Of a stretch of DNA of 64,000 nucleotides, positions 22,737-38,176 are shown one piece after another. The DNA is from Pseudomonadota bacterium (GTDB lineage Bacteria > Pseudomonadota > Alphaproteobacteria > Rhodobacterales > Rhodobacteraceae). The notes under the pieces were generated by a model. That model had not been told where the DNA came from. It worked only from the letters and a program-made list of their open reading frames with translations, and ran no database searches. Position 1 is the stretch's first letter. Each line of letters begins with the position of its first letter. Both the position numbers and the translations under genes were made by a program. The DNA lies in assembly GCA_038751255.1 (NCBI GenBank), contig JBCDGN010000006.1:689-64688 (forward strand), written 5' to 3'.

Positions 22737-23605
22737 ACGCTTTGAGAGAGATACCGCGACGGATTTTGGGACAAATCTTGATCATGGGTGTTTGCCTTGG
22801 TGCGGCAGAGGCAGAGTCATTTGCGTGTCGCGATGTCTCTGGGCGCACGGTCAGCCGGGTTATAGGTGGACATCAGATTTCTCATCAAGAGGCACCTTAT
22901 CAGGTTGCCTTGATAGTCCGGAGCGCGGACGGCGACGGCAGTTTTGGTTGCGGCGGGTCTTTGATCAGTCGCGGCTTTGTCCTGACAGCGGCGCATTGTG
23001 TGGTGGGCAAGGAAATCAACGGCCCCAACGGAAAGGCCCAACCGGGCCAAGTCACAGTGCTTTATGGCGGTGACAGTCAGCTCGAGATGATGCAGGCGAA
23101 CCAAACGGCAGAGGTGGACTCGATCATTGTCCATTCGCGGTACCGCGACCGGGTCCCGAGCCCTGCAGATATCGCGGTCCTACGGTTGAAAGACCCGCTG
23201 GATGTCCCTCAAACCGCTGTGATCACGCTTGCCTCGCCACAGATGGAAACTGCCTTGATGGCAGATTTTACCTGCGCACGAGTGACTGGTTACGGACGAA
23301 CCGAAAGCGGTCGCGGCAGTGATCAAATGCTCGGGGTCAACCTTCTGGTTCAACCCGCACAGGTTTGCCGCAATTTCAGCACTCAAGTCACGTCCGAGAT
23401 GCTTTGCGCCGGGTACAATGCTGGGGATCAGACCGCTTGCAATGGTGACAGTGGAGGGCCGCTGGTGATCCGCGAGGGCCCAACCGGCTGGGTGCAGGTG
23501 GGCATTGTGAGTTGGGGAAAAAAAGGCTGCCGTGGGGCGGGAAGCTTTGGTGTCTATACGCGGGTGTCTTCCTTTGTGCCTTGGATATTGCAGGTGACGC
23601 AATGA
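22733..23605 (+). CDS. Exported S1 (chymotrypsin-fold) serine protease with short propeptide
   Basis: ORF track gives 22598..23605. Start moved to ATG 22733 (MNALREIPRRILGQILIMGVCLGAAEA), which forms ATGA with the upstream stop. Catalytic triad LTAAHC / DIAVLRL / GDSGGPL. Mature-type N-terminus VIGGHQ preceded by Arg. Confidence 0.9.
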   Translation: MNALREIPRRILGQILIMGVCLGAAEAESFACRDVSGRTVSRVIGGHQISHQEAPYQVALIVRSADGDGSFGCGGSLISRGFVLTAAHCVVGKEINGPNGKAQPGQVTVLYGGDSQLEMMQANQTAEVDSIIVHSRYRDRVPSPADIAVLRLKDPLDVPQTAVITLASPQMETALMADFTCARVTGYGRTESGRGSDQMLGVNLLVQPAQVCRNFSTQVTSEMLCAGYNAGDQTACNGDSGGPLVIREGPTGWVQVGIVSWGKKGCRGAGSFGVYTRVSSFVPWILQVTQ

Positions 23606-24519
23606 GGATGTGTGCGGCCGGCGGGCTTGTCGCTTCGCTTTGGGTATCCTCAGCTTGGGCCGTCTGCGATCCGCTGCAAGAGGCTGACGAGATACTTTCG
23701 ACTCTCGATGAGAAGAGCAGCACAGCCCTGAGCACGCTGCGCGAATCAGCGCTGCAACGTGGATGTACTGGCAGCGAACAGCAACAGATTGGCCGCTGGT
23801 TGTCTCTTTCACTTCTTTACGATGCAGCGCGTAGTTTCAGCAGCCTTGAAGAGGCCGAACCGAGCTTGCGGCGCGCGGCTGCTTTCGGGGGCATTTGGCA
23901 GGTCCACAATGCACTAGGCGATGCAGCGCGCGCGCGCAGAGACTATGACGAGGCTGCGCTTCAGTATCAGCTCGCCATCCAGGATGCGCAGATATTGGCG
24001 GATCCCTCGTCAAGCTATCTTGATGTGCCACCAGGTGAGGATGCGATGACTGCTTTGGTTGGCAAGGCCAATGACATGCGCCTTCTGGCCTCTGGCTTTG
24101 TGACACTCCCTGGACGTCCGGCTTGTCAGATTCAGACGACGAGCCTTTGGACCGCGCAGATCGTTGCGCCGATCCGTTTCGTGACCAACGAGACCACAAT
24201 GACGGATGAGGGTAAGTCCGCGGCGGATGAGCTTTATTCCTGCCTTGCCGCGCTGGACCCGGCGAATATCGAAAGTATCACCATCATTGGTCACACCGAT
24301 GAACGGGGCTCTGATAGCTACAATCAAGCGCTTTCTTTGCGCCGTGCAGAAGCGGTCAAAACCTATTTGGTGGACCGAGGCCTGCGTCTTGACATGGGGA
24401 TTGAGGGACGCGGTGAGGAAGAGCTTTTTCAACCCGACACCAGTTTTGCCTATAGCGAGGAAGAACGTTGGCAAATGAGCCGTCGGGTTGAAGTTGATGT
24501 CGTCGAACGCGGGAGCTGA
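23602..24519 (+). CDS. Exported OmpA-family protein (helical N-terminal half + OmpA_C domain)
   Basis: ORF track gives 23512..24519. Start moved to ATG 23602 (ATGA overlap with the protease stop; MRMCAAGGLVASLWVSSAWA signal). C-terminus ITIIGHTDERGSDSYNQALSLRRAEAVKTYL..RRVEVDV is a canonical OmpA_C motif. Confidence 0.85.
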   Translation: MRMCAAGGLVASLWVSSAWAVCDPLQEADEILSTLDEKSSTALSTLRESALQRGCTGSEQQQIGRWLSLSLLYDAARSFSSLEEAEPSLRRAAAFGGIWQVHNALGDAARARRDYDEAALQYQLAIQDAQILADPSSSYLDVPPGEDAMTALVGKANDMRLLASGFVTLPGRPACQIQTTSLWTAQIVAPIRFVTNETTMTDEGKSAADELYSCLAALDPANIESITIIGHTDERGSDSYNQALSLRRAEAVKTYLVDRGLRLDMGIEGRGEEELFQPDTSFAYSEEERWQMSRRVEVDVVERGS

Positions 24520-24521
24520 AC

Positions 24522-26042
24522 ATGCATCAGCCGCTCTTAGCAGCACTCTGTGTCGCCTGGGCCGCTTCGTCCCCTGTGATCGCGGCGAATTACGCCTTGG
24601 TCATCGGTATCGATGACTATGAAAGCATCGCCGACCTACAGGGTGCCAAAAATGACGCAACACTGATTGCTGAGGCGCTACAGACCTTTGGCGTTTCCGA
24701 TCTGCGCGTTTTGCTAGACCAAGAGGCGACCTATGACTCAATCCGAAGCGCTTGGAATGATCTGTTGTCCAAAGCGCAATCTGGGGACACGCTTATCTTC
24801 ACCTATTCTGGCCATGGCGCGCGCATCGCCGATGAAAATGGTGACGAAGCCAGCAGATCGCAGCCGGATGATGTGACCGACGAGATGTTCGTTTTCTCAA
24901 GCTACAACGAACAAACCTCTGAAGGGAAAAAGGAAAAACTCATCGATGATGAGCTGCACCAATGGTTCCTGGCGGCAGGCGAAAAAGATGTGCAGGTGCT
25001 TTTTGTCGCCGATAGCTGTTTTTCGGGCACTATCACACGCGGTGGGCGTGCGCGGTTCTTTGAAAGCCTCCTTGGGCTAGGCCCCGATATTCGGCGCAAG
25101 CCTCTGGAAAATATGCGAGAGACAGAAGAAGAGACCATCGAGAACGTGGTTTTTATGGCGGGATCTCGAGAGGCCGAGCCGGTCTTAGAGGTGTTGATCG
25201 ACAACCGATATCACGGTGCATTGAGCTATTCTTTCGCCAGGGCGCTTTCGATGGCGGCCGATCTTGATCAGGATGGCGCGCTGAGCCGCGACGAGCTGTC
25301 CGCATTCATTCCACGAACGGCTCAGAGTTTTAATGGTGCTCGGCATCTGCCGGAACTCAGTGCAGTTGATGGACCTGATTTTGCTGTTTTGGTGCCGGAC
25401 GAAACCGGCTGGAGCGATCCGAACGCGACCTGGGATTACGAAGGCACGGCCCAGGCGGAGCTGCCGCAAGCTTCGACAGCCTCCGCTCTGCCGTCAGCGC
25501 CAGGGGCGTCTTGGGACCCTGAGACTGGGAACATCACTGACGCAATGGGGGAAACCATTGCTTATGGCGTTGACGAAAACCGTCTGACGGAAGTGAATGA
25601 CAAATTCGCCTTGCTGAATTTGCTGCGCGAGGGCGTGGTGCAGTCGGGGACGGACCTTTCCATCATCGTGGAAGGCGCGCCTTGGCATCGCGAATTGACC
25701 ATAGGGACCGGATTCCAAATCCAAATTGGCCCCCTCAAGCGTCCTTATATGACAGTGTTCAACCTAGCCAATAATGGCGAAGTGCAGCTGGTCTATCCTA
25801 TCGATAGAACGGAACGACGACCGCTGCCATTGGGCGAAACAATTACTTTCGATGCGGAAGCATCAGAGCCATTGGGCTCCGATGAGTTGATCGTCATCCT
25901 CACAGATGAAGAGCCCGCAGATTTACGCCAAGCTTTGAAATGGGCGCTGCCTGCCAGCGAGTTTAGCGCCATCGTCACCCGCCTACTGGCTCAAGGGGGT
26001 GCCAGCTTTGGTCATTTCAGCATTGTCACACAGGATCAGTAA
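24522..26042 (+). CDS. Exported caspase-family (peptidase C14) protein with C-terminal DUF4384 domain
   Basis: Signal peptide (PVIA-AN). YALVIGIDDY, His motif FTYSGHGARI, Cys motif LFVADSCFSG. C-terminal TGFQIQIGPLKRPYMTVFNLANNGEVQLVYP (DUF4384-like). Confidence 0.9.
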   Translation: MHQPLLAALCVAWAASSPVIAANYALVIGIDDYESIADLQGAKNDATLIAEALQTFGVSDLRVLLDQEATYDSIRSAWNDLLSKAQSGDTLIFTYSGHGARIADENGDEASRSQPDDVTDEMFVFSSYNEQTSEGKKEKLIDDELHQWFLAAGEKDVQVLFVADSCFSGTITRGGRARFFESLLGLGPDIRRKPLENMRETEEETIENVVFMAGSREAEPVLEVLIDNRYHGALSYSFARALSMAADLDQDGALSRDELSAFIPRTAQSFNGARHLPELSAVDGPDFAVLVPDETGWSDPNATWDYEGTAQAELPQASTASALPSAPGASWDPETGNITDAMGETIAYGVDENRLTEVNDKFALLNLLREGVVQSGTDLSIIVEGAPWHRELTIGTGFQIQIGPLKRPYMTVFNLANNGEVQLVYPIDRTERRPLPLGETITFDAEASEPLGSDELIVILTDEEPADLRQALKWALPASEFSAIVTRLLAQGGASFGHFSIVTQDQ

Positions 26043-26043
26043 G

Positions 26044-27522
26044 ATGAAACGGCTCGCACTGGTATTGACGGCGTTTTTGAGTGTCGCAAGTTTCGCTATC
26101 GCAGAGGATCGCGCGCTGCTGATCGGCGTCAGTGCTTACAACGGGGACGCAGCGCCCCTGGTAGGACCAGCAAACGATCTTCGCCTGATGAAACGGGTCT
26201 TGACCGAAAAGTTTGATTTCGAGACGTCCCAAATTCTGACTCTGGCCGATGATGACGTGACCCGCGGTGCGGTCTTGGGTGCCTTTCAAGACTGGCTGAT
26301 CGACGGCACGCAGCCGGGAGATCGCGTGTTCATCTATTATTCCGGACATGGCACGCAGATCGCCGACCTTGATGGTGATGAAGGTCAAGAGGGACGGGAT
26401 GAGGCATTGGTCATGGTCGATTTTCGCCACTCTGATGCCCGATCCGGGGTCGTCACCGATGATGAGCTTGATGCGCTGTTCAAACGCCTCGCCGGTCGGC
26501 GCGTGACGGCGATTGTTGATGCCTGCCACTCTGGGACAGTGTCGCGATCGCTCACGCCGGTGGTGGCCTCGACCGCTGCGAGGGCGCGGTTTGTGCCGGC
26601 ACGGCTCGAAAACTTACGTGGTGTCTCGGAAACGCGGTCGAGGTCGCGTGATACCGACGCGTTCAAACAAGATGCCAGCATCACAAATAGCGACCGGCCA
26701 TCTACTGGGTTGCTGGAGGTCTGGTCCTCTGCCGCGTCCTACCAGCTTGCCTGGGAGACCGATTATGAGGGCGAGTCCCATGGTGTGTTCACCAAAAACT
26801 TCGCCGAAGCGGTTCTGGATGACCGAGCCGACAGCAATGACAATGGTCACACCAGCCGGGAAGAGCTTCTGGCCTACATAAACGCGCGCTCTGAGGCGTT
26901 CTGCGCATCCAGCCCAGACTGCGCCGCGCGTGGAACCGGGTTTACCCCACAGCTTGAAGTGCCCCATGCAAGCCGAATTCTGACCGTTGTCGATTGGCCG
27001 GAAGAAGGCAACGAGCCCATTTCTGCCCCGACGGTCCAGGAGATGCTTGATCTCATTACTGGCGGGCGCAGAGACGTAAGGCTCGAACTCGTCCATCTCG
27101 ACAGAACAAAGGGCGGACCCATTCGTCCCGGCGATCATGTGGCTTTCGAAATCCAATCTCAAAGGGACGGCGATGTGCTGCTGTTCGATCTACGTGATGG
27201 CGGTGTTGTGCATCAACTTTTCCCGAGTGTCGCCTTTGCGAAAAACACCTCAGTTTTTTCTGGCGGGACGCTACGCATCCCTGACGCCTATACCCAGGTC
27301 GCTTTTCCCGCGCCCGCGGGACAAGGTACCTTGGTCGCGCTGATCGTCCATGACGCTGGACTGGTGAACAGCCTCAGTCAGCGCAACCGGCAGCTTACCC
27401 CAATCACCGATCCGCTCAGCTTTCTTGGCGAATTGATGAGTGAAATCAATGGTGTTTGGCATGGCGATGCAGAGAACCGAAAGGTCGAATTTGGCATGGC
27501 CGTGATGCCTTATGCGATCTAA
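26044..27522 (+). CDS. Exported caspase-family (peptidase C14) protein with C-terminal DUF4384 domain
   Basis: ORF track gives 25999..27522. Start moved to ATG 26044 (MKRLALVLTAFLSVASFAIA signal), 1 nt after the upstream stop. RALLIGVSAY, His motif IYYSGHGTQI, Cys motif AIVDACHSG. C-terminal GDHVAFEIQSQRDGDVLLFDLRDGGVVHQLFPS (DUF4384-like). Confidence 0.9.
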   Translation: MKRLALVLTAFLSVASFAIAEDRALLIGVSAYNGDAAPLVGPANDLRLMKRVLTEKFDFETSQILTLADDDVTRGAVLGAFQDWLIDGTQPGDRVFIYYSGHGTQIADLDGDEGQEGRDEALVMVDFRHSDARSGVVTDDELDALFKRLAGRRVTAIVDACHSGTVSRSLTPVVASTAARARFVPARLENLRGVSETRSRSRDTDAFKQDASITNSDRPSTGLLEVWSSAASYQLAWETDYEGESHGVFTKNFAEAVLDDRADSNDNGHTSREELLAYINARSEAFCASSPDCAARGTGFTPQLEVPHASRILTVVDWPEEGNEPISAPTVQEMLDLITGGRRDVRLELVHLDRTKGGPIRPGDHVAFEIQSQRDGDVLLFDLRDGGVVHQLFPSVAFAKNTSVFSGGTLRIPDAYTQVAFPAPAGQGTLVALIVHDAGLVNSLSQRNRQLTPITDPLSFLGELMSEINGVWHGDAENRKVEFGMAVMPYAI

Positions 27523-29663
27523 ACCGCGACCGGGTTGTCCAACCTGCGCGACGCATCCAGTCGATCCATGTCCGCGTCCGAGCATCCCAGGGGTCGTGCA
27601 TCAACGCGCAAAACCTCCACCGATTTGGGAAGTTTGGCAGCGCGCAACGCCTCTTCGAAAAGAGATGTCTGGAACAGATCGCGCCGTGTCTCAAAAACCG
27701 TAAAACTTGGCATCCGTCCGCAGCGCGCATACCACGCCTTGGCCAGATCGATCATATCCGCGAACGGTGTATCGGGTTCAATGGTCTTCACGATCCGCAA
27801 GCTGTAGCAGGCGACCTCTAAGGGGAGATCCGCAAGCGCGGCGGATAGCGCCGTTTCGATAGAGTTCTCACCCTGTGTTAGATCAATGTTGAATTCCTGC
27901 CGCCAGACGCTTTTTCGCTGCGCCGCGTCGTAGCGTTCGGCACACCGTTCGAGGATCTGCACCACGATGTCTTCGTCTTTCTTTTGGTCGGCGGCGGAAA
28001 GATCTTCATAGTCGCGCATCAATGGATGCAATTTCTTTTCGTCGTCCCGCATGCCGGACTGAGCGGGCTCATAGCCGTCGGCGCGTTTTTCAGTGAGCCA
28101 CCGCTCGTGTTCTGTCTGCGAGAGCCGAAGGATCAGGGCCTCATCCCGAAGAAGCTGATCGGCCAACGCTCTTGGGAGTCGCATGCCAGCCAATCCGGTC
28201 CCATGATCCGGCCTCAATCCGGCGCTGCGCAAGAGCTCGACCGCAGAGAGCGCTGCCCGATAGCTGGACCGACGACTGGAGTAAGTCAGTTTCTTCCAGG
28301 CTTGTTCGACTTGTTTGTCTTTGTCCTGGGTGAGCAGCCAAGTATTGTGTAGGGTTTCTGCGAGTTCTTCATGGAAGTTTTCAATCTCACTGTCTTCGGT
28401 ATCGCTTCTGATCCCACCAAAGAAAACAGGGCGGCTCGTCAGATCTACTAATGCGGTGGGCGCAATGCGGTCTCGGAAGTCTTGGCGCACATAAATGGGC
28501 GCTTTCAAACGCAGCTTGTTTAACTGAGCCTGTCTGAGACGCGTGGCAATGGCCGCATTTCTCGCATCATTTCCAGTTGCGACGATCAGCGCGGTGAGCG
28601 GGGCGAGCTTCTCCAACTCAATCAGCGGTTGTAAAATAGCGTCTTCTCCGCAGCGAAGCCCATCGAAATCCGCGATATCGACATTGGACAGACCATACAG
28701 ACCTGGCCTTTCACTTTCCATCCGAGCAATCGCCCCCGACGGGTTGCTGTCCAGTATCGACAGGCGCAATGGTTTAAGATCGGGGGCATGACAGCGCAAA
28801 ACCAGCTCTTCCGCGATCGCAAGTCCAACGCTTCCAAGACCGATTAAGGCGATATGGACTTGGTCTTGCTGGCGCATGGTCGCAAGTGTTGTCGGCGCCA
28901 TATGTGTCACCAACGAGCGCGCGATGATCTGGCCCGCTGAAAACACCTCAAACTTCCGTAGATCCGCATGGAAAAGTTCCAAATCGCGGGCGATTGAGCC
29001 ATCCTCCAACCGAATGCGCCAGTGCAGTTTTTCGTTGTGCGGTGAGGCATGCCGCGCTGAAAGAGCACGGGCGAGCTGAAGGTTACGCACACTTTGCCGG
29101 TCGCCCAACGTGATATGAGCCGGCGCTCCGATCGCAGAGGCAATCTCGGCAATATCTTCTCCTGTAACTGGCAGCAGAGAGGTGCGGCTCAGTCTCGGGC
29201 TCAACACATCAAGGGTGTTTTTTTCGACGATCACCGTAAGAGGGCGATTTGCCAGATCGGCAGCGGTTTCTTCCATGTCCAACACAAAACGATCCCCACC
29301 AATGAGGACGTGGTGATCGGTTCGGTGTTTGGCCCGGAACTTCTTCCACGAGTCTCCTAAGAAAACAGCGACGACACCAAACACCGCCGAGATTGTGGCA
29401 AGCAAACCAGTTAAACTCGCAATGCGAAGCTCTAGAACGTTTGAAAATTTTTCGTCCGCATAAATACCGTCGCCGCCAAAGGCCAAGAGCGAAAGATAGA
29501 CCGCCGCAGGTGCGTCTTTTTCCGCCCCAGTCCAACCGATAAACCCAAGGATCAAAGTGACCGTGCCCATCACGCAAAAGAAAACCCAAGCGGCATGGCG
29601 TTTTACAAAGCTTAAAAGGTCTCTCATTCCACACACATGAAATAGGTCATCAGAGGAATTCAC
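27519..29663 (-). CDS. Membrane protein with Rossmann-type (TrkA-N-like) region and a RyR-type domain
   Basis: N-terminal hydrophobic helices (WVFFCVMGTVTLILGFIGW, LTGLLATISAVFGVVAVFLG). Dinucleotide-binding motif VHIALIGLGSVGLAIAEEL. LSQTEHERWLTEKRADGYEP..DEKKLHPLMRDYEDLSAADQKKDEDIV matches the bacterial RyR-domain pattern as I remember it. ~170-aa unassigned C-terminus. The ORF starts at GTG 29663; ATG 29627 is an alternative. Confidence 0.65.
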   Translation of the reverse strand: MNSSDDLFHVCGMRDLLSFVKRHAAWVFFCVMGTVTLILGFIGWTGAEKDAPAAVYLSLLAFGGDGIYADEKFSNVLELRIASLTGLLATISAVFGVVAVFLGDSWKKFRAKHRTDHHVLIGGDRFVLDMEETAADLANRPLTVIVEKNTLDVLSPRLSRTSLLPVTGEDIAEIASAIGAPAHITLGDRQSVRNLQLARALSARHASPHNEKLHWRIRLEDGSIARDLELFHADLRKFEVFSAGQIIARSLVTHMAPTTLATMRQQDQVHIALIGLGSVGLAIAEELVLRCHAPDLKPLRLSILDSNPSGAIARMESERPGLYGLSNVDIADFDGLRCGEDAILQPLIELEKLAPLTALIVATGNDARNAAIATRLRQAQLNKLRLKAPIYVRQDFRDRIAPTALVDLTSRPVFFGGIRSDTEDSEIENFHEELAETLHNTWLLTQDKDKQVEQAWKKLTYSSRRSSYRAALSAVELLRSAGLRPDHGTGLAGMRLPRALADQLLRDEALILRLSQTEHERWLTEKRADGYEPAQSGMRDDEKKLHPLMRDYEDLSAADQKKDEDIVVQILERCAERYDAAQRKSVWRQEFNIDLTQGENSIETALSAALADLPLEVACYSLRIVKTIEPDTPFADMIDLAKAWYARCGRMPSFTVFETRRDLFQTSLFEEALRAAKLPKSVEVLRVDARPLGCSDADMDRLDASRRLDNPVAV

Positions 29664-29812: not shown

Positions 29813-30910
29813 ATGACCGAACCACGTCGGATACTCTCCATCTCTGGCGGGGGCGTTCGTGGCATCATCGCTGTCGCGTTCCTTGAGGCGGTAGAAGGTA
29901 TCTACCGCGCACGACGCGGGCCCGATGCTCGGCTATGTGACGTCTTTGATTTGGTCGGCGGGACCTCTACCGGTGCGCTCATTGCGGCGGCGGTAGCGCT
30001 CGGCCATCCAATGGAGCAGGTTGCGGATTTCTACCTCACCCGCGCAAAAGACTATTTCAAACGCCGAGCCTCTTGGCGCTTGGGGCTTGCGCCGGTGTAT
30101 GACGCTGCGACGCTTGAGAAGGAAATTCGTCTTGAGGTCGGCGATGTGCGATTGGGCGACCCAGAGCTGCGCACCTTATTCGCCGTTGTAATGAAGCGTC
30201 TCGACACCGGCGCCTCTTGGATTGTGTCAAACATCCCCTCTGCCCCTTATTTCGAAGACCCTCCAGACAACAGTTTTGTCGGCAATCGCCATTATCCGCT
30301 GGCGCGGCTCTTGCGTGCGAGCACAGCCGCGCCTGTCTTGTTCAGTCAAGAGGTCCTTGAGATCGTCGAAAACGAGCCGCCGGGTGTCTTCGTTGATGGT
30401 GGTATCAGCCCTTATAACGACCCTTCGCTCGCGCTGCTAATGCTCGCGCGGATGCAGGCCTTTGGCCTGTCATGGGAGTTGGGGCCAGAGCAGCTTTTTG
30501 TTCTATCAGTCGGCTGTGGTCAGGTTCGGCGCCGCCTGGAGCCGCAAAGCGCAGCGAGTGCCGGACCATTGCGCCTGGCAGCACAGGCGCTCATGGGGAC
30601 CACATGGGACGGCATGAACCATACGCGGATGATGATGCAGTGGCTTGGCGTGCCCTTGGTGCAAGAACCGGTCAATAGCGAAGTCGGCACCCTCGCCGAG
30701 GATCATCTTTTTGGGACACCGATTTTCTCAGAACTCAATCTTGACCTCCCGTTTGATGAAGACCGCTTGCGGGCTGCTGGACTGGATGTCGCGGAGGCAA
30801 CGCTCAAAGAGTATCGAGTGCTCGATAATCCTGACATTATCCATCCGCTCTACGATCTTGCCCGCGCTTGGTGCGCAAATACCTATGATTTAGAAGCTCT
30901 TTTGCCTTGA
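29813..30910 (+). CDS. Patatin-like phospholipase
   Basis: Oxyanion motif SGGGVRG, nucleophile elbow GGTSTG (GxSxG), catalytic Asp motif VFVDGGISPYNDP. The ORF opens at GTG 29780; ATG 29813 chosen. Confidence 0.9.
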   Translation: MTEPRRILSISGGGVRGIIAVAFLEAVEGIYRARRGPDARLCDVFDLVGGTSTGALIAAAVALGHPMEQVADFYLTRAKDYFKRRASWRLGLAPVYDAATLEKEIRLEVGDVRLGDPELRTLFAVVMKRLDTGASWIVSNIPSAPYFEDPPDNSFVGNRHYPLARLLRASTAAPVLFSQEVLEIVENEPPGVFVDGGISPYNDPSLALLMLARMQAFGLSWELGPEQLFVLSVGCGQVRRRLEPQSAASAGPLRLAAQALMGTTWDGMNHTRMMMQWLGVPLVQEPVNSEVGTLAEDHLFGTPIFSELNLDLPFDEDRLRAAGLDVAEATLKEYRVLDNPDIIHPLYDLARAWCANTYDLEALLP

Positions 30911-30919
30911 GGAGATATT

Positions 30920-32983
30920 ATGACCGACAGTGTTGAACTGCATCCTCGAATGACCTTACGCGTCGGCGTGACCGGCCATCGGCCAGACAACGAAGCGATG
31001 AAGGCGGCGATCGCAGAAGGGGGTCTTGAAGACAAGATCTCGAAACTGTTGCGGTGCCTTTCTGCTGCTGTTCAAGATCTCCACGCACAGGATCAGAACC
31101 CGCAAGATATTGGGAATACGACAAAAACCGCAGCCTACTCGAGTGAAGATCCAGAATTTCGTCTTGCCACCGCTCTCGCCGCAGGGGCCGATTGCATCGC
31201 GGCAAAAGCTGCGGTTCGCGAAGGCTACCTGCTCAGCTGTTTGCTTCCTTACATGCAGGCGCCTGCGCCAAACCGTCCCAACTATCGCCCGGATTTCACG
31301 GATGAAGAATGGGCCGGTTTCCAGGAGCTTTGGCAAATCAAAAATGGGCCGCGGCTCGAACTTGATGTCTCGGACGAAAACGATGATCCGCTTGCTTACC
31401 AGGCCGCTGGACGCTTGGTTTTGGCCCATTGCGATGTTTTGCTTGCCATTTGGGACGGAGAACCGAGTGGCGGGGTTGGCGGAACGCGCGATACGATGGA
31501 AGAGGCCCTGCGCCGTGGTCATCGTGTTATCTGGCTGGACCTCAAGACCGGCAATATTATCCTTTGGCCCACGCAACAGCAGGGCGGGGATCCCAGAGTT
31601 GATCCTGAATACCCGCGAATTGATCTGGAAAAAGGCTCTTGCGACCCTGTGTTGCAGGATATGCTGGAAACGCTCTTGGCCTTTCCGGAGACGCAATCGA
31701 CTGATCAGAGCGATCACCACAACGGATCCAAGGGCGCCCATGGTCAGACGCAATCTGACACGCGCGAAAGCCTGAAAGACTACTATGACGCGAAGGAGAA
31801 AGACGATGCCTATCTCATCTTTGGATATGATTGGCTGAGGTTTATCTTCAATGCAGGCGGAAGCTTATCGCTCAAAACTTCCTTCGTCACAGGACCAGAC
31901 GGCGACCAAAAGCGTTGGAAAAAGATCTCCGACGCGGCCGACAAAATTGAGGCAGATGCCAATCGGGATCGCGAGAGTTTATCCAACCGGATTGATCGTT
32001 GCATCGTTCGGCGATGGCGAAGGGCGGACCGTTTGGCCAATGAGTTCTCTGCACGCTATCGCAGTGCTTATGTCTGGAACTTTATCTCCGCGGCCCTGGC
32101 CGTGTTCTTTGGCTTACTGATCATACTGTATCCGACCGACTACCCACCCTTGGAAGGTGCCGCGACGGCTTTTTCGGACTGGAAAACACTGGAGATCAAG
32201 GCGATCCTGGTTCTGATCGAATTGGTGCTGGTCTTAGGTATTTTGTTGCGGACCTGGTGGGGCGTCAAAAAGCATTGGCATGAACGTTGGCTCGACTATC
32301 GCTATATTGCAGAGTCGCTTAGGCCCGCGCCGTTGTCGATGCTAATGGGCAGCTCTCCTCTAAGACCCGAACTTTTCCCAGGCGGCGCGCCGGGGCAGGA
32401 TTGGGTGATGTGGTATGTGAGAGCATGTCTGCGCGAAATAGAACCCCCGAGCGGTGTCATCGGACGCGAAGAATTGCGTCTGGTCATAAATGCAGCGCTC
32501 GAAACCGAGGTGGAACCGCAAATCAAGTATCATGCATTGAACAAAAAGCGGATGCACAAGCTGTTTCACGGGATCGAGAAACTAGCGAAGTGGTTGCTCA
32601 TTGCGACGCTCGGGGTCGGGGGGCTCTACCTAATTGTCTTTGCCATTTATTGGGTGACGGACCACAAATGGCTGTCAGATCAGCTTAAGAGCGTTGGGAA
32701 GCCCTGGTTTACCTTTCTAGGTGGCATTCTTCCGGTGTTTGGGGCAGCGCTTTTTGGCATCCGTGTGACCGGTGATTTTGGAGCGCTCGAGCGGCAATCC
32801 AAACGTACACTCGCCTCTTTGGAGAGTATTCAGGCGAACCTGCTGAAAGAGTGCAACGCGGAGCATAGTCCAAACCGGATCCGCTTGCGACGGTCGTTCG
32901 CGCACCTCTCAACGGTGCTTTCGGCAGACGTCCACTTGTGGGGGACCATCTATAGCGAGCGGCCCCTGCCTGCAGGTTTTTAG
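30920..32983 (+). CDS. SLOG-like nucleotide-binding domain fused to SLATT-type transmembrane modules
   Basis: Strong RBS GAGGAG 7 nt upstream. N-terminal Rossmann-like region RVGVTGHRPD..AAGADCIAA..HCDVLLAIWDGEPSGGVGGTRDTMEEAL (LOG/SLOG-like GGxGGTxxE motif). C-terminal half has two helix-pair modules preceded by amphipathic helices (YRSAYVWNFISAALAVFFGLLIILY / AILVLIELVLVLGILL; LAKWLLIATLGVGGLYLIVFAIYWV / WFTFLGGILPVFGAALFGI), resembling DUF4231/SLATT. Assignment is by eye. Confidence 0.65.
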   Translation: MTDSVELHPRMTLRVGVTGHRPDNEAMKAAIAEGGLEDKISKLLRCLSAAVQDLHAQDQNPQDIGNTTKTAAYSSEDPEFRLATALAAGADCIAAKAAVREGYLLSCLLPYMQAPAPNRPNYRPDFTDEEWAGFQELWQIKNGPRLELDVSDENDDPLAYQAAGRLVLAHCDVLLAIWDGEPSGGVGGTRDTMEEALRRGHRVIWLDLKTGNIILWPTQQQGGDPRVDPEYPRIDLEKGSCDPVLQDMLETLLAFPETQSTDQSDHHNGSKGAHGQTQSDTRESLKDYYDAKEKDDAYLIFGYDWLRFIFNAGGSLSLKTSFVTGPDGDQKRWKKISDAADKIEADANRDRESLSNRIDRCIVRRWRRADRLANEFSARYRSAYVWNFISAALAVFFGLLIILYPTDYPPLEGAATAFSDWKTLEIKAILVLIELVLVLGILLRTWWGVKKHWHERWLDYRYIAESLRPAPLSMLMGSSPLRPELFPGGAPGQDWVMWYVRACLREIEPPSGVIGREELRLVINAALETEVEPQIKYHALNKKRMHKLFHGIEKLAKWLLIATLGVGGLYLIVFAIYWVTDHKWLSDQLKSVGKPWFTFLGGILPVFGAALFGIRVTGDFGALERQSKRTLASLESIQANLLKECNAEHSPNRIRLRRSFAHLSTVLSADVHLWGTIYSERPLPAGF

Positions 32984-33001: not shown

Positions 33002-33718
33002 TTAGCTGACTGGGTTCTTGGGCATTGTTCCTAGCGCCAGCACCCTGTTGAGGAGCTGGTGCACTGCTTCGGCAACGCCCGCGAGGACGATCGTGGTCAC
33101 GCCTATATCGATAAGCTGAAAGAGCTCGAGCTGTGTGGCAGGCAAGCTTGCAGCCACAAACTCCGGCGAGAACGCGGCTTTGAGCAATTGGAAGCCAGAA
33201 AGGCTCACCGCTGCACCCAAAAGACAGGACCAAAGGATGGCGCTGTGTTTTTTACGCCGGCGCAAATCCTCGAGCTTTAGCCGCGCATTGGCGGCCTTGT
33301 CCGATATGCCTTGGCGGATTGCCTCAGATTCGGCACCCATTGCGTCTTCGACAAGCAGCATCCTGTCTTGTGGGTTGACCAAAAGCTCCAGATCCTGTGC
33401 CAGCATATCGGAACGCACTTTGTTGCGCGCCAAGGCCTCACGCAGTGGCAGCTGGATCGCGATTTCTTCTGCCCCGTAGAGTGAGCTCAAGATGAGCTCC
33501 ACTCCGCGTTCAATGAGGATCGCAAGAAATAAGACCAGCACCAAGAGCTTGCCAAGATCAGCAAGGCTGACCCCGGCTGAACTGACCGCTGAGAACCCCA
33601 ATTTGCCAGCAGCAAAACTCGCCGCAACAATGATCAAGATAACAAGGCCGTAGCCTAACATGCTGATCTTTCCAGGGGCGGTGCCGTTATCGGTCATGTT
33701 GAACTGTCCCGAGATCAT
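33002..33718 (-). CDS. Hypothetical 4-TM membrane protein with a charged coiled-coil-like loop
   Basis: Hydrophobic helices (LGYGLVILIIVAASFAA, LLVLVLFLAILIERGV, AILWSCLLGAAVSLSGF, IDIGVTTIVLAGVAEAV). The start forms ATGA with the stop of the upstream subtilisin gene. No family recognised. Confidence 0.6.
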   Translation of the reverse strand: MISGQFNMTDNGTAPGKISMLGYGLVILIIVAASFAAGKLGFSAVSSAGVSLADLGKLLVLVLFLAILIERGVELILSSLYGAEEIAIQLPLREALARNKVRSDMLAQDLELLVNPQDRMLLVEDAMGAESEAIRQGISDKAANARLKLEDLRRRKKHSAILWSCLLGAAVSLSGFQLLKAAFSPEFVAASLPATQLELFQLIDIGVTTIVLAGVAEAVHQLLNRVLALGTMPKNPVS

Positions 33719-35196
33719 TGTGTGAAGTTTTTCCAGGCAATGGCCGGTTCAGCCGTCTTGTACTTGGCGGGCGCGTTGCCGGTGAGTTTTTCTCTGATCT
33801 CTGACACGTTGCCCGCAGTGACTTTGCCCGCCGAGATCGCGAGTGAGACCAAGCCTGCTGCCACCGCAACTGCACCTGACGTGCCGCTAAATCGGCAAAA
33901 GCAGGATCGGTAGTCGAGATACTTGTCCTCTTTCCCCTTTGCTTTGGCGAAGGGACTGCTGTTGTACCCTGCGCGCCCTGGCACGTCGGTTGAAATCAGT
34001 TCTTGCGGGGCAAAGCTGTGCTCGTCGGGCGGGTTCTCATGCGGATAGGTGTGCAGTTTACCGCTGTAGCAGCTCGATTGTTCACCGGCGCGATAGCCAA
34101 CCGCAACTGTGTCGATGCGCTGCATTCTTTTGTCGAGCCGCTCACCATCGCCGCTTGGGCCGTAAACGGTGACGTCGTTTGATTCCGGTGTGAAGGCTGA
34201 TCTTTGGCCCGCTGCCGTGCGTGCCCCGACAGCAATAATTCCGTGATGATTGCGTGCCAGTGAGGCAGGGAACAGTACAAGATCATCTCCCCCATTTCCG
34301 GCGGCGCACAGGACCGGGATCTTTGTGGAGACCGCGATCACCAACTCTTCCAAGAGGTCCCATTCTTCCATTTCTTCTTTGCGAAGGCCAACGCCTAGCG
34401 CTTCACTGAGCTTCTGACGCTTGTCATCTTCGCTGTCGTAACAGGCCTGTAGGACAAGGCTAACTGGTTTCGGAAAATCGCGCGCTAAGACGATCAGGTC
34501 CGCCTCAACCAAGACCGAATAGAGCATGGTGAGGATAAGTTGCTGAGGCTCTGGATTGAAATTGGTCGAGATCGGGATGATTTCGCAGAAGGGGTCGACC
34601 CCGGCATAGGCCAAGCCAAGCGTTCCTTCTGCGTCAGGGTTCACAACCATTTTGATATTGCTGTCTGCGGGTGTCACCGGTTGCGCACCGATCAGTCCCG
34701 CCATGGCCGTGCCGTGAGCTGAGAAATTTTTAGAGGTCGCGGGTTTCACTTTCGAACTGTGGTCTTTTTCCGGCGAGCTTTTCTCGAAATGCTGATCGAG
34801 ATGCTCGATCATGTCCTCCCAAAACTTGCGAGCGTCGTCAGGCAGATGCTCGGGCCAATCAACCTCACCTTTTTTGACGATCTTCCCAAGTCGACTGTCT
34901 CCCTTATTTTCCAAGATCGGCAGGCCAAGCTTGTGCGAGAAAAAATCGACACCCAAGTCTTTGGCGATGGTGTTCTTTAAATTGGGATGTTCATCATCCA
35001 CTGAGGTGTCGATCAGAGCGACCCGAGTGGCTGGGGCGTTGCCCTCTACGATGCGCGTGTGAGCATCGTCCCAGGCACTGGAATTGAAGTCATTGAGATT
35101 CTCAAGCACGCCGATTTCTTCTAGGTGCCAAAGCGCTTTGAAAGGGGCGTAAACGCCGGTGCTGTCAGCGCCGTTATTTGCAGGTGTCATCGTCAT
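33715..35196 (-). CDS. Subtilisin-like (peptidase S8) serine protease, no obvious signal peptide
   Basis: Catalytic motifs VALIDTSVDDEHPNL (Asp), HGTAMAGLIGA (His), CAAGNGG (oxyanion Asn), FSGTSGAVAVAAG (Ser). ORF track gives 33715..35259. Start moved to ATG 35196 (MTMTPANNG), which has GAGG 8 nt upstream and lies 10 nt after the upstream stop. Confidence 0.85.
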   Translation of the reverse strand: MTMTPANNGADSTGVYAPFKALWHLEEIGVLENLNDFNSSAWDDAHTRIVEGNAPATRVALIDTSVDDEHPNLKNTIAKDLGVDFFSHKLGLPILENKGDSRLGKIVKKGEVDWPEHLPDDARKFWEDMIEHLDQHFEKSSPEKDHSSKVKPATSKNFSAHGTAMAGLIGAQPVTPADSNIKMVVNPDAEGTLGLAYAGVDPFCEIIPISTNFNPEPQQLILTMLYSVLVEADLIVLARDFPKPVSLVLQACYDSEDDKRQKLSEALGVGLRKEEMEEWDLLEELVIAVSTKIPVLCAAGNGGDDLVLFPASLARNHHGIIAVGARTAAGQRSAFTPESNDVTVYGPSGDGERLDKRMQRIDTVAVGYRAGEQSSCYSGKLHTYPHENPPDEHSFAPQELISTDVPGRAGYNSSPFAKAKGKEDKYLDYRSCFCRFSGTSGAVAVAAGLVSLAISAGKVTAGNVSEIREKLTGNAPAKYKTAEPAIAWKNFTQ

Positions 35197-35206
35197 AGCA
35201 ATTACC

Positions 35207-36151
35207 TCAAGTCCATTCGGCGCGCGCAAGAAGCATCTGTTCTTCAAGCACAGATTCAAAAATAGGGGTCATCATGCGGGCCAGATCGCGCCCCGCAAAT
35301 GTGTCGACCGGATAGTGCACACCGGCCCATTCGCGGTTCTCCGCGATCCTGCGAGCGCTGAGGAAAAGCCACGCAATCCCGGGGTGTTCGGGCGCCACGC
35401 GTGAGAAAACAAAGGCCATCGAATGGGATTGGAAGGAGTGGTTCGATGGATAGGACGCATGTGCGGGGTTCGCAATGAATGTGTCAAGCTGCGGGTTCGC
35501 CATGCTGGGGCGCAGCACGTCAAACCGGTCTTTGTAGCGCAGCCCTATCTCTTCGCAGAGCCGAGCGACGATCAGGAAAAGCGCGGAGGTTTGTGGAAAA
35601 CTTGAAGGATCCTCGACGCCAAGTGGTCGGAGGTAACCCGAAAGCTCAAGCTGCATTTCACGTATGATCTCATCGCGGCGCCCGGATTCTTCCCAAGTCT
35701 GCAGTTTTTTCTGCTTTTCCAGCAATTCACCGGTCATGTGGCGCAGTTTTGTGATGGAAGGGGGCAGTTCTAAGGGCAAATCGCGCCACTCGTCGATCTT
35801 TTCATGCAGCAGCCCAATTTCGCGCCAAGGCAGCAGGATGTCGAAATCACTGCCGCCGGCAAAATCCGCACCCAAATCCTCTGCAAGATTGCGGTTGCGA
35901 TTTCTGTTCCGGTTCCGATTGCGGTTTCTGTTCCGGTTTCGGTTGCGATTTCTGTTCCGATTGCGATTTCGGTTGAGCACCGAAGAGGCGCCTCCTCCGC
36001 CAGAGGGCAAATCCATGAAACTGATCGGACTGGCAGTCCCGGTCACATTGACCGACAGCACCGTGGGGTCTGACGTACGAGGCACAAGTTCAAATGAGTC
36101 CCCGACCACCAAAAGCGTGGTCGTCTGTAATGTATCGCTGAAACTATTCAC
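35207..36151 (-). CDS. PAP2 / haloperoxidase-superfamily phosphatase-like protein with internal (Asn-Arg)14 tract
   Basis: All three PAP2 motifs in order: KDRFDVLRP (KxxxxxxRP), YPSNHS (PSGH variant), NREWAGVHYPVD (RxxxxxHxxxD). GTG start with GGGGGA upstream. N-terminal ~100 aa unassigned, followed by the NR dipeptide tract. Confidence 0.75.
   Translation of the reverse strand: MNSFSDTLQTTTLLVVGDSFELVPRTSDPTVLSVNVTGTASPISFMDLPSGGGGASSVLNRNRNRNRNRNRNRNRNRNRNRNRNRNRNLAEDLGADFAGGSDFDILLPWREIGLLHEKIDEWRDLPLELPPSITKLRHMTGELLEKQKKLQTWEESGRRDEIIREMQLELSGYLRPLGVEDPSSFPQTSALFLIVARLCEEIGLRYKDRFDVLRPSMANPQLDTFIANPAHASYPSNHSFQSHSMAFVFSRVAPEHPGIAWLFLSARRIAENREWAGVHYPVDTFAGRDLARMMTPIFESVLEEQMLLARAEWT
35888..35974 (-). 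repeat. In-frame dipeptide repeat (Asn-Arg)x14 + Asn inside the PAP2-like CDS
   Basis: Read codon by codon from the DNA: AAC/AAT alternating with CGA/CGC/CGG/AGA for 29 codons. The codon choice is mixed, so this is not a pure hexanucleotide microsatellite. Confidence 0.95.
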
Positions 36152-36175
36152 TGGAAGTCCCCCATGTGTTCCATA

Positions 36176-38176
36176 TTAGGCTCCTGCATCGATCAATCCC
36201 TGTTCGAGCACTTTCTTTGCAGTTTCGTCTTGCACCGCCATGCGGTTGGCCTGGACCCAGTCAGCCGAGAAATTAGGATCCATGCTGCGGATGCGGGCAA
36301 TGTAGTCTTTCGCTTCTTCGGCCTTGCCCAGATACGCGAGACTGATTGAGGTATAACGCAGCGCTGCACCGTAGTTCGGCCGTTGCGCCAGGATGCGCTG
36401 ACCGATTTTGCTCGCCGTGCGGTAGTCGCCCTCAAGCGCGCTGATCATGCATCTTGTGGTTTCTAGGGTGAACCTGATCGGGCTGAACTCACCCATTTTG
36501 AGCGCAATGGCAGAGGCGTAGTGGGCCTCTTTGTAGCGCGCATTGTAAAGATGGTGCAGTGCCAGATGATCCCAGCAAAAGGCCGATTGCGGGCCAAAGC
36601 GGATCGCCCGGTCCAAAAGCTCTGCGGAACTTTCCCGGTCATGCAGGATGTACCCCATGGCATGTCCGGCAAGCGCCAAGCCAATGCCGCCGCTGTGGGC
36701 CGTGTCGCCGGCATTGGCCAAAAGTGAGCGAGTTTCATCCCTGACTGCGCCGTCAAAAGACCGCCAGTGCTCGCCAACTGAAAACGTGTTCAAGTAAGCA
36801 AGAAGGGCAGGGTAGATCGATGTTCCGGTCAAAACCCAGCTTTCGTGCAGACGCGTCCTCAGCGGTCCGAGCGCAGTGTGGTCAAGCTGGAACATCGCGC
36901 TTAGAGCGTGGAAGGGACTGATCGGAGCGTCCCCGGCCACAGTGTTGCGAGTTTCCAAGGTTTTTGCGGCCTGATCGAAGGCCTTGCCCAGCATCGCCAG
37001 CGTCTTTTCATGCTCCGTTGCGCCGCCTGTCGCAGGAACGTTTGCGCAATCGACGCTCCATAGGAGCTCTTGATTGGCCTGTCGCATCGCCAAGATGCGC
37101 AGCGCCAATTCGCCTTCCTGTTCGTAGACCCGCATGCGCAGGAAGAGGTCGGGGTCGCGTGTTGCTGTCGCGCTCGGGTCCGGCACACCGGCGAGGTCGC
37201 GATAATCATAGCAACGCGCCCCGATGTATTCGCGCAAGCCCGTTGCGACCCGGTCCATGAGTGCTTCGGCGAAAAACATGGTCTGAGCGGATTGGGAATG
37301 GATCACCGGCTGCAACAGTCCGACGACCGGCCAATTCTGCTTGGCCTCATCCAGCGGGGTCGGAATCGCCGCTGGGGTGACCGCCGTGGGCAAGGTGGCT
37401 TGTGGCTGGGGCGCGGGCGGATCTTCTTCGTAGGCCTCGATGATTTCTTCGAGACGGTCATACCAATGAGACCGCTGCACGCGGAGCCATTCCTCGAACT
37501 CATCCGACACATCGCCGCGCAAATTGATGCCTTCCAAGAGATCCGGCAGCATCTGATGATGATGAGAGGGGATCGCCGAAGCACCCTGTGCTTCGATCAC
37601 GAATAGATCGACGCTCACACCTTGCAAGCGGATGTTGACTGCATCGGCTTCGATCAGGGCGGGGGAGAACCCGATCAGGCTCTTTCTCAGGCCATGAAGC
37701 GCGGTGCGCATGCTTTGTGCCGCTCGGCGAGGATCCTTTTCGCCCCAAAGCATATCCTGAAGCCGTGTCCGCGAAATCGTCCCGTTCGGCGCCAGCGCCA
37801 GCATCGCCAGCATCGCTTGTTGTTGCGGGCTTCGGGGCGTCCGATCTTGCTCTTGGACGTCCAAAAGTCTTAAGGGCCCCAATAGATAGAGCCGCGCTTG
37901 TTTGTCCGTGTCTCCGGTCGCCACCGGTCCACCCCGCGTCAGATCTTGCCCAGGCCCCCCACCGGACCTTTGCCCATCGGCAGAAAACTCCAACCAATTC
38001 AAGCTGTCCATCAAAGAATTCAAAGCGCCCTCCGGTGGCAGGCCGGTCCGCGAAAAAATCGTCGCGCTGTACATTGACTGGGCATCTATCGCAGCGGGCA
38101 AGTTCAAAGCGGGGGGCAACGCAAGACGGTTGGGGTAGTGGCTTTGGTTTTCATCGGCAATCTCCACCGGAATCAC
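36176..38176 (-). CDS. Winged-helix (OmpR/SARP-type) DNA-binding domain protein with large helical / TPR C-terminal region
   Basis: LYLLGPLRLLDVQEQDRTPRSPQQQAMLAMLALAPNGTISRTRLQDMLWGEKDPRRAAQSMRTALHGLRKSL fits a Trans_reg_C/BTAD-type wHTH. C-terminal TPR-like AQRPNYGAALRYTSISLAYLGKAEEAKDYIARIRSMDPNF. 24 nt upstream of the PAP2-like gene. Confidence 0.75.
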   Translation of the reverse strand: MIPVEIADENQSHYPNRLALPPALNLPAAIDAQSMYSATIFSRTGLPPEGALNSLMDSLNWLEFSADGQRSGGGPGQDLTRGGPVATGDTDKQARLYLLGPLRLLDVQEQDRTPRSPQQQAMLAMLALAPNGTISRTRLQDMLWGEKDPRRAAQSMRTALHGLRKSLIGFSPALIEADAVNIRLQGVSVDLFVIEAQGASAIPSHHHQMLPDLLEGINLRGDVSDEFEEWLRVQRSHWYDRLEEIIEAYEEDPPAPQPQATLPTAVTPAAIPTPLDEAKQNWPVVGLLQPVIHSQSAQTMFFAEALMDRVATGLREYIGARCYDYRDLAGVPDPSATATRDPDLFLRMRVYEQEGELALRILAMRQANQELLWSVDCANVPATGGATEHEKTLAMLGKAFDQAAKTLETRNTVAGDAPISPFHALSAMFQLDHTALGPLRTRLHESWVLTGTSIYPALLAYLNTFSVGEHWRSFDGAVRDETRSLLANAGDTAHSGGIGLALAGHAMGYILHDRESSAELLDRAIRFGPQSAFCWDHLALHHLYNARYKEAHYASAIALKMGEFSPIRFTLETTRCMISALEGDYRTASKIGQRILAQRPNYGAALRYTSISLAYLGKAEEAKDYIARIRSMDPNFSADWVQANRMAVQDETAKKVLEQGLIDAGA

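Follow-up and report, generated by a model that had tools for sequence, protein, structure and literature searches.

A patatin and a SLOG-headed four-helix membrane protein as the candidate effector arm of a STAND-coupled, Thoeris-like TIR system in a member of the Rhodobacteraceae

Results

A patatin gene closely followed by a membrane protein gene

This analysis concerns a two-gene module at positions 29,813–32,983 of a 64,000-nucleotide stretch from a member of the Rhodobacteraceae (Pseudomonadota bacterium, assembly GCA_038751255.1, contig JBCDGN010000006.1, positions 689 to 64,688 of the forward strand); this whole stretch is called the window below. The module joins a patatin-like phospholipase to a 687-residue protein with a predicted SLOG-type head and four predicted transmembrane (TM) helices, for which we use the name SLOG-4TM. 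An earlier note, made from the sequence alone, had described the module as an orphan effector pair possibly fed by a TIR protein encoded in the same window. Comparison with related loci, cited below by their L numbers, points to a Thoeris-like abortive-infection system in which the pair would act as the effectors and a TIR-nSTAND1 operon at the other end of a conserved block would supply sensor and signal, a reading to which we assign a probability of roughly 0.6.

The first gene (29,813–30,910, plus strand) encodes a patatin-like phospholipase of 365 residues, which matches Pfam PF01734 at 87.6 bits (cut-off 27.7, E 1.6e-24) and has neither a signal peptide nor a TM helix. The three catalytic motifs noted earlier are indeed intact: the oxyanion loop GGGVRG (G12-G-G-x-R16-G17), the nucleophile S52 within GTSTG (G50-T-S52-T-G54) and the catalytic D195 in D195-G-G, none of which varies when the protein is aligned with six partner patatins taken from related loci. 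Orthologues in loci L082, L084, L171 and L172 share 56–61% identity with it. Among solved structures, CapV comes closest (8zr9, E 5e-15, aligned at residues 6–244), and the phospholipase effector model of the cyclic-oligonucleotide-based antiphage signalling system (CBASS) in PADLOC matches at 7.3e-38; the score against NCBIfam CBASS_lipase (NF041079, the CapV equivalog) is 99.9 bits, under the cut-off of 200. Residues ~245–365 form a conserved C-terminal extension that CapV lacks.

The junction with the next gene (30,905–30,922, plus strand) was read directly from the sequence. The stop codon TGA at 30,908–30,910 is overlapped by the ribosome-binding site tGAGGAG and followed by nine nucleotides (ggagatatt) and an ATG at 30,920, as the earlier note had described. 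The corresponding spacers measure 13 nucleotides in L082, 14 in L171 and 19 in L172. This layout suggests translational coupling of the patatin and the 687-residue protein.

The 687-residue protein has a YpsA/DprA-type SLOG head

The second open reading frame (ORF; 30,920–32,983, plus strand), placed downstream of the patatin by the earlier note, is conserved over its full length in at least 215 database proteins and has relatives in at least 555 GTDB species. Because sequence-profile searches returned nothing significant for its N-terminal domain (residues 1–262; 30,920–31,705, plus strand), the assignment of this domain to SLOG rests on fold comparison. Pfam and NCBIfam gave no SLOG-family match to the window protein, one of 40 homologues matched Pfam DprA (8.9e-5), and searches of the PDB with full-length and N-terminal alignments produced matches at chance level only, namely antibody Fv, de novo proteins and a nucleoside 2-deoxyribosyltransferase (E 0.02).

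An AlphaFold2 model of the full-length protein, built from a 40-sequence alignment, reached a predicted local distance difference test score (pLDDT) of 88.6 and a predicted TM-score of 0.89, and residues 1–262 modelled separately reached a pLDDT of 90.6. With the N-terminal model as query, Foldseek placed Bacillus subtilis YpsA (2nx2) at the top of its PDB matches (E 2.7e-6, TM-score 0.61), followed by ShosA, DprA, TM1055, YgdH, a MoCo carrier protein, a type-II LOG and the SLOG domain of ThsA; probabilities for these SLOG matches were 0.8–1.0, and the ThsA domain (7uxs) matched weakly at E 0.044. Phage YpsA-, DprA- and DUF2493-like proteins in BFVD matched with a best E of 1.9e-11. The matches to YpsA, DprA and these phage relatives place the modelled domain in the SLOG superfamily, in its YpsA/DprA-like clade. 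Queried with the full-length model, Foldseek returned DprA at E 0.013 and otherwise non-significant helical bundles (GPCR-BRIL fusions, ABC transporters). A resemblance to pore toxins of the ClyA/XaxA/SmhB type was likewise non-significant (Foldseek probability 0.1–0.6) and was not used as evidence.

Conserved motifs of the head are GVTGHR (16–21), GxD (89–91), LP (109–110), DxLxAxWDG (172–180) and GGT (187–189), among which GVTGHR, G89xD91 and G187-G188-T189 are fully or at least 90% conserved across the 40 homologues. The motif GGVGGTRDTMEE picked out in the earlier note includes the near-invariant G187-G188-T189 loop. Its description of the domain as SLOG/LOG-type holds for the SLOG fold, as judged by structure comparison, and fails for the LOG likeness, since YpsA and DprA are closer and the position of the LOG catalytic glutamate, three residues past T189, is not conserved. 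The lack of conservation at this position favours a predicted cytoplasmic ligand sensor over a hydrolase.

Viral matches to the SLOG-4TM profile (L177–L255, from IMG/VR) cover nearly always the SLOG part alone, over ~100–240 residues, and most of these contigs exceed 50 kb, many of them being phage genomes of 100–200 kb; L176 is the only viral match that also spans the membrane part. Such stand-alone phage SLOG proteins might bind or degrade host TIR-made signals as an anti-defence measure.

The membrane half carries one SLATT-like module

Hydropathy analysis predicts TM helices at residues 385–403, 424–442, 558–576 and 596–614, and the AlphaFold2 model shows the C-terminal half as two long helical hairpins. 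The first (residues 354–468; 31,979–32,323, plus strand) is built in the model from helices 354–403 and 417–451. Pfam DUF4231, the founding SLATT family, scores 18.8 bits against this hairpin in the window protein, below its cut-off of 24.7, and is matched by 32 of 40 homologues with a best E of 1.5e-7 (SLATT_3 by two of 40); at the family level, the profile matches thus make the first hairpin DUF4231/SLATT-like.

The remainder of the protein (32,324–32,983, plus strand), delimited by conservation and the model, comprises an inter-hairpin segment with conserved RWLDYRxLAExLR and WYxR motifs, the second hairpin and C-terminal helices. In the model, the helices of this second module span residues 516–680, including the TM helices at 558–576 and 596–614. 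Its sole SLATT match is to NCBIfam SLATT_1 at 14.5 bits against a cut-off of 41, and the idea that the two helix pairs arose by internal duplication was rejected on an hhalign profile-profile probability of 0.3. Two SLATT/DUF4231 modules had been proposed in the earlier note; the first is supported at the family level and the second is not. We therefore named the protein for its four TM helices and count one SLATT-like module in it, the second hairpin resembling SLATT only below threshold. Given an even number of TM helices and no signal peptide, the SLOG head and the inter-hairpin segment should both be cytoplasmic.

A TIR protein and an nSTAND1 NTPase are encoded in the same window

The TIR gene at 15,954–17,414 that the earlier note had pointed out is real. 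It lies on the minus strand and encodes 486 residues with a Pfam TIR_2 domain (E 4.4e-13) and a weak DUF4062-like region. Residue E96 aligns with a glutamate retained in 93% of 43 TIR proteins that adjoin SLOG-4TM genes, which makes the window TIR a candidate signal generator with an intact catalytic glutamate. The gene is transcribed toward that of an nSTAND1 NTPase (11,536–16,152, minus strand; Pfam 313 bits, cut-off 27.1, E 5e-93) with long, divergent C-terminal repeats, whose true start is probably near 15.96–15.97 kb, adjoining the TIR stop codon. Compared with its orthologue at L087:13400-18268, the window protein shows 52.6% identity over the NTPase part and 37% over the extreme C-terminus, and the two are unalignable across ~residues 680–1285. 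Such a region appears to be diversifying, as is typical of ligand-recognition repeats, and we regard nSTAND1 as a candidate invader sensor controlling the TIR.

A conserved block ends in the TIR-nSTAND1 operon and in the pair

Positions 11,536–32,983 of the window (~21 kb) are syntenic, gene for gene, with a contig of GCA_044221805.1 (loci L082 and L087). There, one strand carries nSTAND1 (1622 residues), TIR (500 residues), a caspase with a PG_binding domain and an OmpA protein, and the other carries DUF4384, serpin, DUF4384, trypsin, OmpA, caspase, caspase with DUF4384, patatin and SLOG-4TM. Protein identities are 42.5% for the TIR over its full length, 43–55% for the middle cluster, 60% for the patatin and 36% for SLOG-4TM. 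In L087 the TIR gene overlaps its STAND gene by 4 nucleotides, and in L082 the patatin gene starts 112 nucleotides after the caspase-DUF4384 gene on the same strand. Because the genes beyond both ends of the block have no counterpart in the other genome, the block behaves as a unit that ends in TIR-nSTAND1 on one side and the pair on the other. In L087, a gene for alpha-2-macroglobulin is found two genes past nSTAND1.

The association recurs in the clade closest to the window, defined by SLOG-4TM proteins at 33–41% identity and surveyed in gene tables with precomputed Pfam annotation. TIR, nSTAND1 or both lie nearby in nine of its ten contexts, the exception being the lone SLOG-4TM gene of L085. 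In L172, patatin and SLOG-4TM are convergent with a single TIR_2-nSTAND1-TPR fusion protein; in L171 the two genes converge with those for a TrkA_N protein and an nSTAND1-like protein. In L173 a TIR gene is transcribed away from SLOG-4TM and patatin, L081 encodes TIR-CHASE2, a 126-residue protein, an M48 peptidase, patatin and SLOG-4TM on one strand, and L084 holds nSTAND1, patatin and SLOG-4TM on an integrase-bearing element. TIR proteins plus STAND or TrkA_N-like proteins stand beside SLOG-4TM in L001 and L002. Locus L083 contains TIR-STAND, TPR-S and TIR-TPR genes, a tandem of two SLOG-4TM paralogues and the remains of a patatin gene that IS66 has cut. The TIR gene adjoins an effector gene or shares an operon with one in L172, L173, L081, L083, L001 and L002, and not in the window. 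In L083 the paralogues occupy 7877–11974, downstream of two TIR proteins, and the patatin fragment (15077–15433), which lies beside the IS66 transposase genes, is 46% identical to the N-terminus of the window patatin.

These clade contexts, the shared block and the family-wide counts given below argue against the label of orphan for the pair and favour the proposed link to the TIR, whose function remains a matter of prediction. The Thoeris-like circuit that had been suggested stands as to its association with a TIR and falls as to a free, ThsB-type TIR, the window TIR being coupled to a STAND protein.

SLOG-4TM and patatin in the wider family

At E ≤ 1e-30 the SLOG-4TM family comprises 4,055 clusters at 50% identity; a plasmid collection yielded two partial matches only. 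With a TIR hidden Markov model (HMM) built in this analysis and a range of 6 kb, a TIR was found near SLOG-4TM homologues in 41 of 80 genome loci, in at least eight architectures that include a 723-residue TIR of Sphingomonadales, TIR-FHA, TIR-STAND fusions and small TIRs. When the anchors were grouped by single linkage at 45% identity, 12 of the resulting 25 clusters contained a TIR-linked member, and 14 a TIR- or nSTAND1-linked one. SLOG-4TM is found far more often beside STAND-free TIRs (the 723-residue TIR, TIR-FHA, TIR-CHASE2 and small TIRs), and nSTAND1 homologues adjoin the pair in L084, L171, L172, L065 and L096, the STAND gene being cut by the contig end in L171 and L096. A patatin gene adjoins SLOG-4TM in seven of the 80 genome loci.

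About 29 Sphingomonadales loci (within L013–L079) share a conserved operon of the 723-residue TIR, one or two proteins of 140–180 residues, which have no Pfam match and no window homologue, and SLOG-4TM. This operon often lies beside ispG (GcpE), and so looks vertically inherited rather than island-borne. Another arrangement occurs in a single alphaproteobacterial clade (L009, L010, L044 and L063), where SLOG-4TM precedes patatin; a conserved protein of 433–452 residues directly follows the patatin in L009 and L044, and one of 493–521 residues lies further downstream in L010 and L063. These 433–521-residue proteins, too, lack a Pfam match and a window homologue.

The patatin was also followed from its own side, in 80 metagenome loci anchored on the window patatin subfamily at 37–50% identity, many of whose contigs are only 2–6 kb long. 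A SLOG-family ORF adjoins the patatin in 41 of them. The partner may be a full SLOG-4TM protein, in either order and either orientation, a stand-alone SLOG protein of ~230 residues (eight loci), or an ORF for the 4TM part only, near a second and complete copy, and L145 encodes a SLOG-patatin fusion with a divergent TIR. That SLOG accompanies the patatin as a fusion, as a neighbour and as a membrane-anchored partner is what one would expect of a regulator of the lipase. Among 133 neighbours within 4.5 kb of 34 related pairs, no defence-type domain other than TIR recurs; further recurrent domains are CHASE2 and Peptidase_M48. For patatin-bearing loci as a whole, the TIR/STAND link is weaker than in the clade of the window.

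Other genes of the window

The earlier note had reported no cyclase nearby, and this was borne out: PADLOC, run on the 51 main window ORFs, matched 17 families, none of them a CD-NTase, and no cyclase model matched any of the 133 neighbours of the 34 related pairs, contrary to the possibility, also raised there, that homologous pairs always come with a cyclase of their own.

Directly upstream of the patatin, and divergent from it, a gene on the minus strand (27,519–29,663) encodes a 714-residue membrane protein whose N-terminus holds three TM helices and which also has a TrkA_N-like Rossmann domain (a weak Pfam match) and a RyR domain (7.1e-8). An HMM made from neighbours of SLOG-4TM in L001, L062, L067, L075 and L080 matches it with E 4.8e-21, a homologue sits directly beside the pair in L171, and a TM-TrkA_N protein adjoins SLOG-4TM in six of the 80 genome loci. 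The gene is an extra of the window, absent from the block in GCA_044221805.1. Its product may be a third, channel-like component or membrane effector.

Between TIR and this gene lies a cluster of nine genes for exported proteins (17,643–27,522), delimited by Pfam and signal peptides, in the order caspase with PG_binding, OmpA, DUF4384, serpin, DUF4384, trypsin, OmpA, caspase, and caspase with DUF4384. With its three caspases, trypsin, serpin, two OmpA-like proteins and three DUF4384 domains it resembles a periplasmic protease/inhibitor system. All nine proteins have signal peptides, which the TIR, STAND, patatin and SLOG head lack; with a cytoplasmic TIR and exported proteins in the middle, the pair becomes the plausible receiver of a TIR signal. 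The module of OmpA and caspase-PG is common in Rhodobacterales without TIR or patatin, and, apart from the syntenic block in L082/L087, pair-bearing loci of the clade lack the cluster. We regard its membership of the signalling system as uncertain. An adjacent caspase as the TIR effector, in the style of type IV Thoeris, was set aside in view of its signal peptide and PG-binding domain, and the wide occurrence of the module without a TIR argues against it further.

On the other side, downstream of and convergent with the pair, the minus strand at 33,002–38,176 encodes a four-TM protein of 238 residues without a family match, an S8 subtilase, a PAP2 protein and a 666-residue protein with a Trans_reg_C-like and TPR region; none of these genes has a counterpart beside the pair in related loci. 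The PAP2-family phosphatase ORF (35,207–36,151, minus strand) contains ~15 Asn-Arg dipeptides (NRNRNR...), a hexanucleotide tandem repeat within the coding region. Outside ~6.9–38.2 kb the window is devoted to sugar and transport metabolism. As for the edges of a mobile element, no tRNA gene was found, and no integrase family appeared among the scanned window ORFs.

Discussion

A proposed circuit

In the mechanism that we favour, the nSTAND1 NTPase would recognise an invader through its variable C-terminal repeats and oligomerise, and would then activate its partner TIR, which would use NAD+ to make an ADP-ribose-derived messenger. The latter would bind to the 687-residue protein at its cytoplasmic, YpsA-type SLOG head, whereupon the four-helix SLATT-type part may assemble or open and permeabilise the inner membrane. 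The sensor-less patatin would be activated or recruited to the membrane by the SLOG-4TM protein and degrade phospholipids, a step proposed mainly because the partnership of SLOG and patatin occurs in fused, adjacent and membrane-anchored forms. The TM-TrkA_N-RyR protein could be a third membrane effector. We infer every step of this scheme from the domain identities, gene order and co-occurrence observed above.

Several observations weigh against it. The window TIR lies 13.5 kb from the pair and on the opposite strand, with nine unrelated-looking genes for exported proteins between them, and the co-occurrence of the two ends in two genomes could reflect a single inherited arrangement. Locus L084 has an nSTAND1 without a canonical TIR, and the four loci of the L009/L010/L044/L063 clade combine SLOG-4TM, patatin and an unknown protein with no TIR within 6 kb. 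More broadly, HMMs detected TIR or nSTAND1 within 6 kb in only ~10 of 35 loci that combine patatin with SLOG or SLOG-4TM, many of them on short contigs. The second helix pair is not demonstrably SLATT (hhalign 0.3), and ligand binding, pore formation and lipase activity are predictions for every member of the family. Published work adds that neither the "SLOG and 4TM" nor the "SLOG Patatin" operons, two of each, gave defence in Escherichia coli and that TIR-STAND proteins are usually treated as NAD+-depleting effectors (bioRxiv 10.64898/2025.12.03.692087).

Alternative explanations

The distance of the TIR and the lack of a TIR or STAND within 6 kb at most pair-bearing loci could mean that the pair is self-contained and independent of the island TIR, its SLOG domain monitoring a nucleotide of the cell itself, such as NAD+, ADPR or a comparable metabolite that shifts on infection or stress, or responding to any TIR or other generator encoded elsewhere in the genome. 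The L009/L010/L044/L063 clade, which has neither TIR nor STAND within 6 kb, and the lone SLOG-4TM gene of L085 agree with this. However, many of the TIR-less contigs are only 2–6 kb long, TIR is still the only recurrent defence-type neighbour, TIR or STAND accompanies all but one of the contexts in the window's own clade, and the edges of the block coincide with TIR-nSTAND1 and the pair; we therefore hold this explanation to be rather unlikely. Direct contact, as in Avs-type systems, is another way in which a STAND protein might activate the lipase and the membrane protein, with the TIR as an NAD+-depleting co-effector and SLOG as an interaction or enzymatic module instead of a messenger receptor. 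nSTAND1 does stand beside the pair in L084 and L065, where no canonical TIR was called, and likewise in L171 and L096, where the STAND gene is truncated by the contig end, and TIR-STAND proteins are generally regarded as NADases (bioRxiv 10.64898/2025.12.03.692087). Against such a direct mechanism, which we judge improbable, SLOG-4TM is found far more often beside TIRs that have no STAND partner at all, and the N-terminus of the L084 STAND protein resembles part of a DUF4062 (TIR-like) domain. The SLOG domain of ThsA, moreover, is an established ligand sensor.

The syntenic position of the whole caspase/serpin/trypsin/OmpA/DUF4384 cluster, and the closeness of the patatin to the last caspase gene in L082, would also fit a pair that serves the exported proteins, for example in membrane remodelling or permeabilisation, the nearness of TIR-nSTAND1 being incidental. 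This is very improbable: the caspase cluster is wholly absent from six other pair-bearing loci of the clade, an oppositely oriented gene separates it from the pair in the window, its proteins are exported while the patatin and the SLOG head are cytoplasmic, and the pair of OmpA and caspase is widespread without patatin or SLOG-4TM. Finally, CBASS lipase models are the best PADLOC and NCBIfam matches of the patatin, and SLATT proteins serve as CBASS effectors, which could make the locus a decayed CBASS operon in which a CapV-like lipase and a 2TM or 4TM effector have outlived their CD-NTase. We rejected this scarcely credible origin for want of a cyclase both in the 51 window ORFs and around the 34 related pairs; the patatin score also falls at half of the CapV equivalog cut-off, and the sensor is a SLOG domain, tied to TIR products and not to cyclic oligonucleotides.

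Relation to known systems

The general logic of the circuit, from TIR through SLOG or SLATT to membrane death, is already known or predicted, and both architectures have been catalogued. The name SLATT goes back to 2TM modules found in association with SMODS and SLOG domains, and Burroughs et al. are said to have predicted in 2015, at the level of domains, that SLOG-SLATT fusions are nucleotide-gated pore effectors and to have placed such proteins beside TIRs. To our knowledge, the partnership with a patatin, the coupling of nSTAND1 to TIR and the TrkA_N-RyR partner were not described in that work. The 2015 prediction of SLATT as a nucleotide-responsive, pore-forming effector was restated by Kaur et al. 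in 2020 (PMC7159879) and by Iyer et al. in 2022, who also described TIR-SLATT neighbourhoods and implicated YpsA-clade SLOG domains in the sensing of cyclic ADP-ribose (cADPR) variants (PMC9503650).

The most pertinent comparison is with the Thoeris survey of Yirmiya et al. (bioRxiv 10.64898/2025.12.03.692087), who list 29 putative effector types and validated type VII Thoeris, in which a TIR works with the SLATT effector ThsH through canonical cADPR. Among the putative effectors in their Table S2 are "SLOG and 4TM", from Streptomyces and Nitrospira, and "SLOG Patatin", from Pseudomonas veronii and from a metagenome; TIRs in Avs/STAND proteins were excluded from the screen. Judged by domain description, these two entries follow the same logic as the pair, a SLOG domain with four TM helices or a patatin beside a TIR; the TIR domains published with them (Table S1) match those found here weakly or not at all (29–31% identity, E ~1e-7). 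In contrast to "SLOG Patatin", the window lipase has no SLOG of its own and comes from a separate gene apparently coupled in translation to SLOG-4TM, and the window TIR differs from the architectures of the survey in being paired with nSTAND1 (fused to it in relatives) and in lying 13.5 kb away. In common with type VII Thoeris, the proposed circuit has a SLATT-type membrane effector gated by a messenger from a TIR; the family-level DUF4231/SLATT likeness is in the first hairpin. ThsH, by its description, consists of the SLATT domain only, with ligand pockets between protomers, whereas the window protein has a dedicated N-terminal SLOG and a second, unrelated pair of helices and is accompanied by a lipase.

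Type I Thoeris (ThsA, SIR2-SLOG, with ThsB) shares the use of SLOG as the receptor for a TIR-made cADPR isomer. The structural match to ThsA is weak, however, with YpsA and DprA much closer; the predicted output is membrane damage and a lipase here and a SIR2 NADase there; and, unlike ThsB, the window TIR is associated with a STAND protein and is not adjacent to the effector. CBASS contributes CapV as the closest solved relative of the lipase and the same predicted output, membrane-targeting abortive infection, but the window differs from it in the lack of a CD-NTase, the sub-cut-off CapV score and the C-terminal region of the patatin. What is new is the multi-gene set of a sensor-less patatin, SLOG-4TM and a STAND-coupled TIR, sometimes with a TrkA_N-RyR protein, together with TIR-STAND fusions beside a predicted messenger receptor and a split arrangement conserved in two genomes.

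Wider meaning

TIR-based signalling in Thoeris has been mapped quickly; the SLOG-4TM and SLOG-patatin architectures are still unvalidated, and screens leave out TIR-STAND proteins. The loci compared here form a large, uncharacterised family that recurrently combines a TIR, often nSTAND1, a sensor-less patatin and a SLOG-headed membrane protein. Its natural unit may need three to five genes, which we suggest as a reason for the failure of two-gene constructs in E. coli; L172, L171 and L084 offer concrete, compact multi-gene versions of the system.

Beyond the effector role of the pair, it is a tentative possibility that throughout this set a STAND (nucleotide-binding leucine-rich repeat (NLR)-like) NTPase controls the TIR as a second-messenger synthase, the product being read by a SLOG-gated membrane protein that acts jointly with a separate lipase and possibly with the channel-like TrkA_N-RyR protein. 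If true, some TIR-STAND (Avs-like) proteins now classed as NADase effectors would be signal generators, and the boundary between Avs and Thoeris would blur. The circuit would then be a bacterial counterpart of the plant one that leads from a TIR-NLR (TNL) through a small molecule and a lipase-like receptor to a membrane channel, and this parallel with plant TNL immunity would become testable in bacteria.

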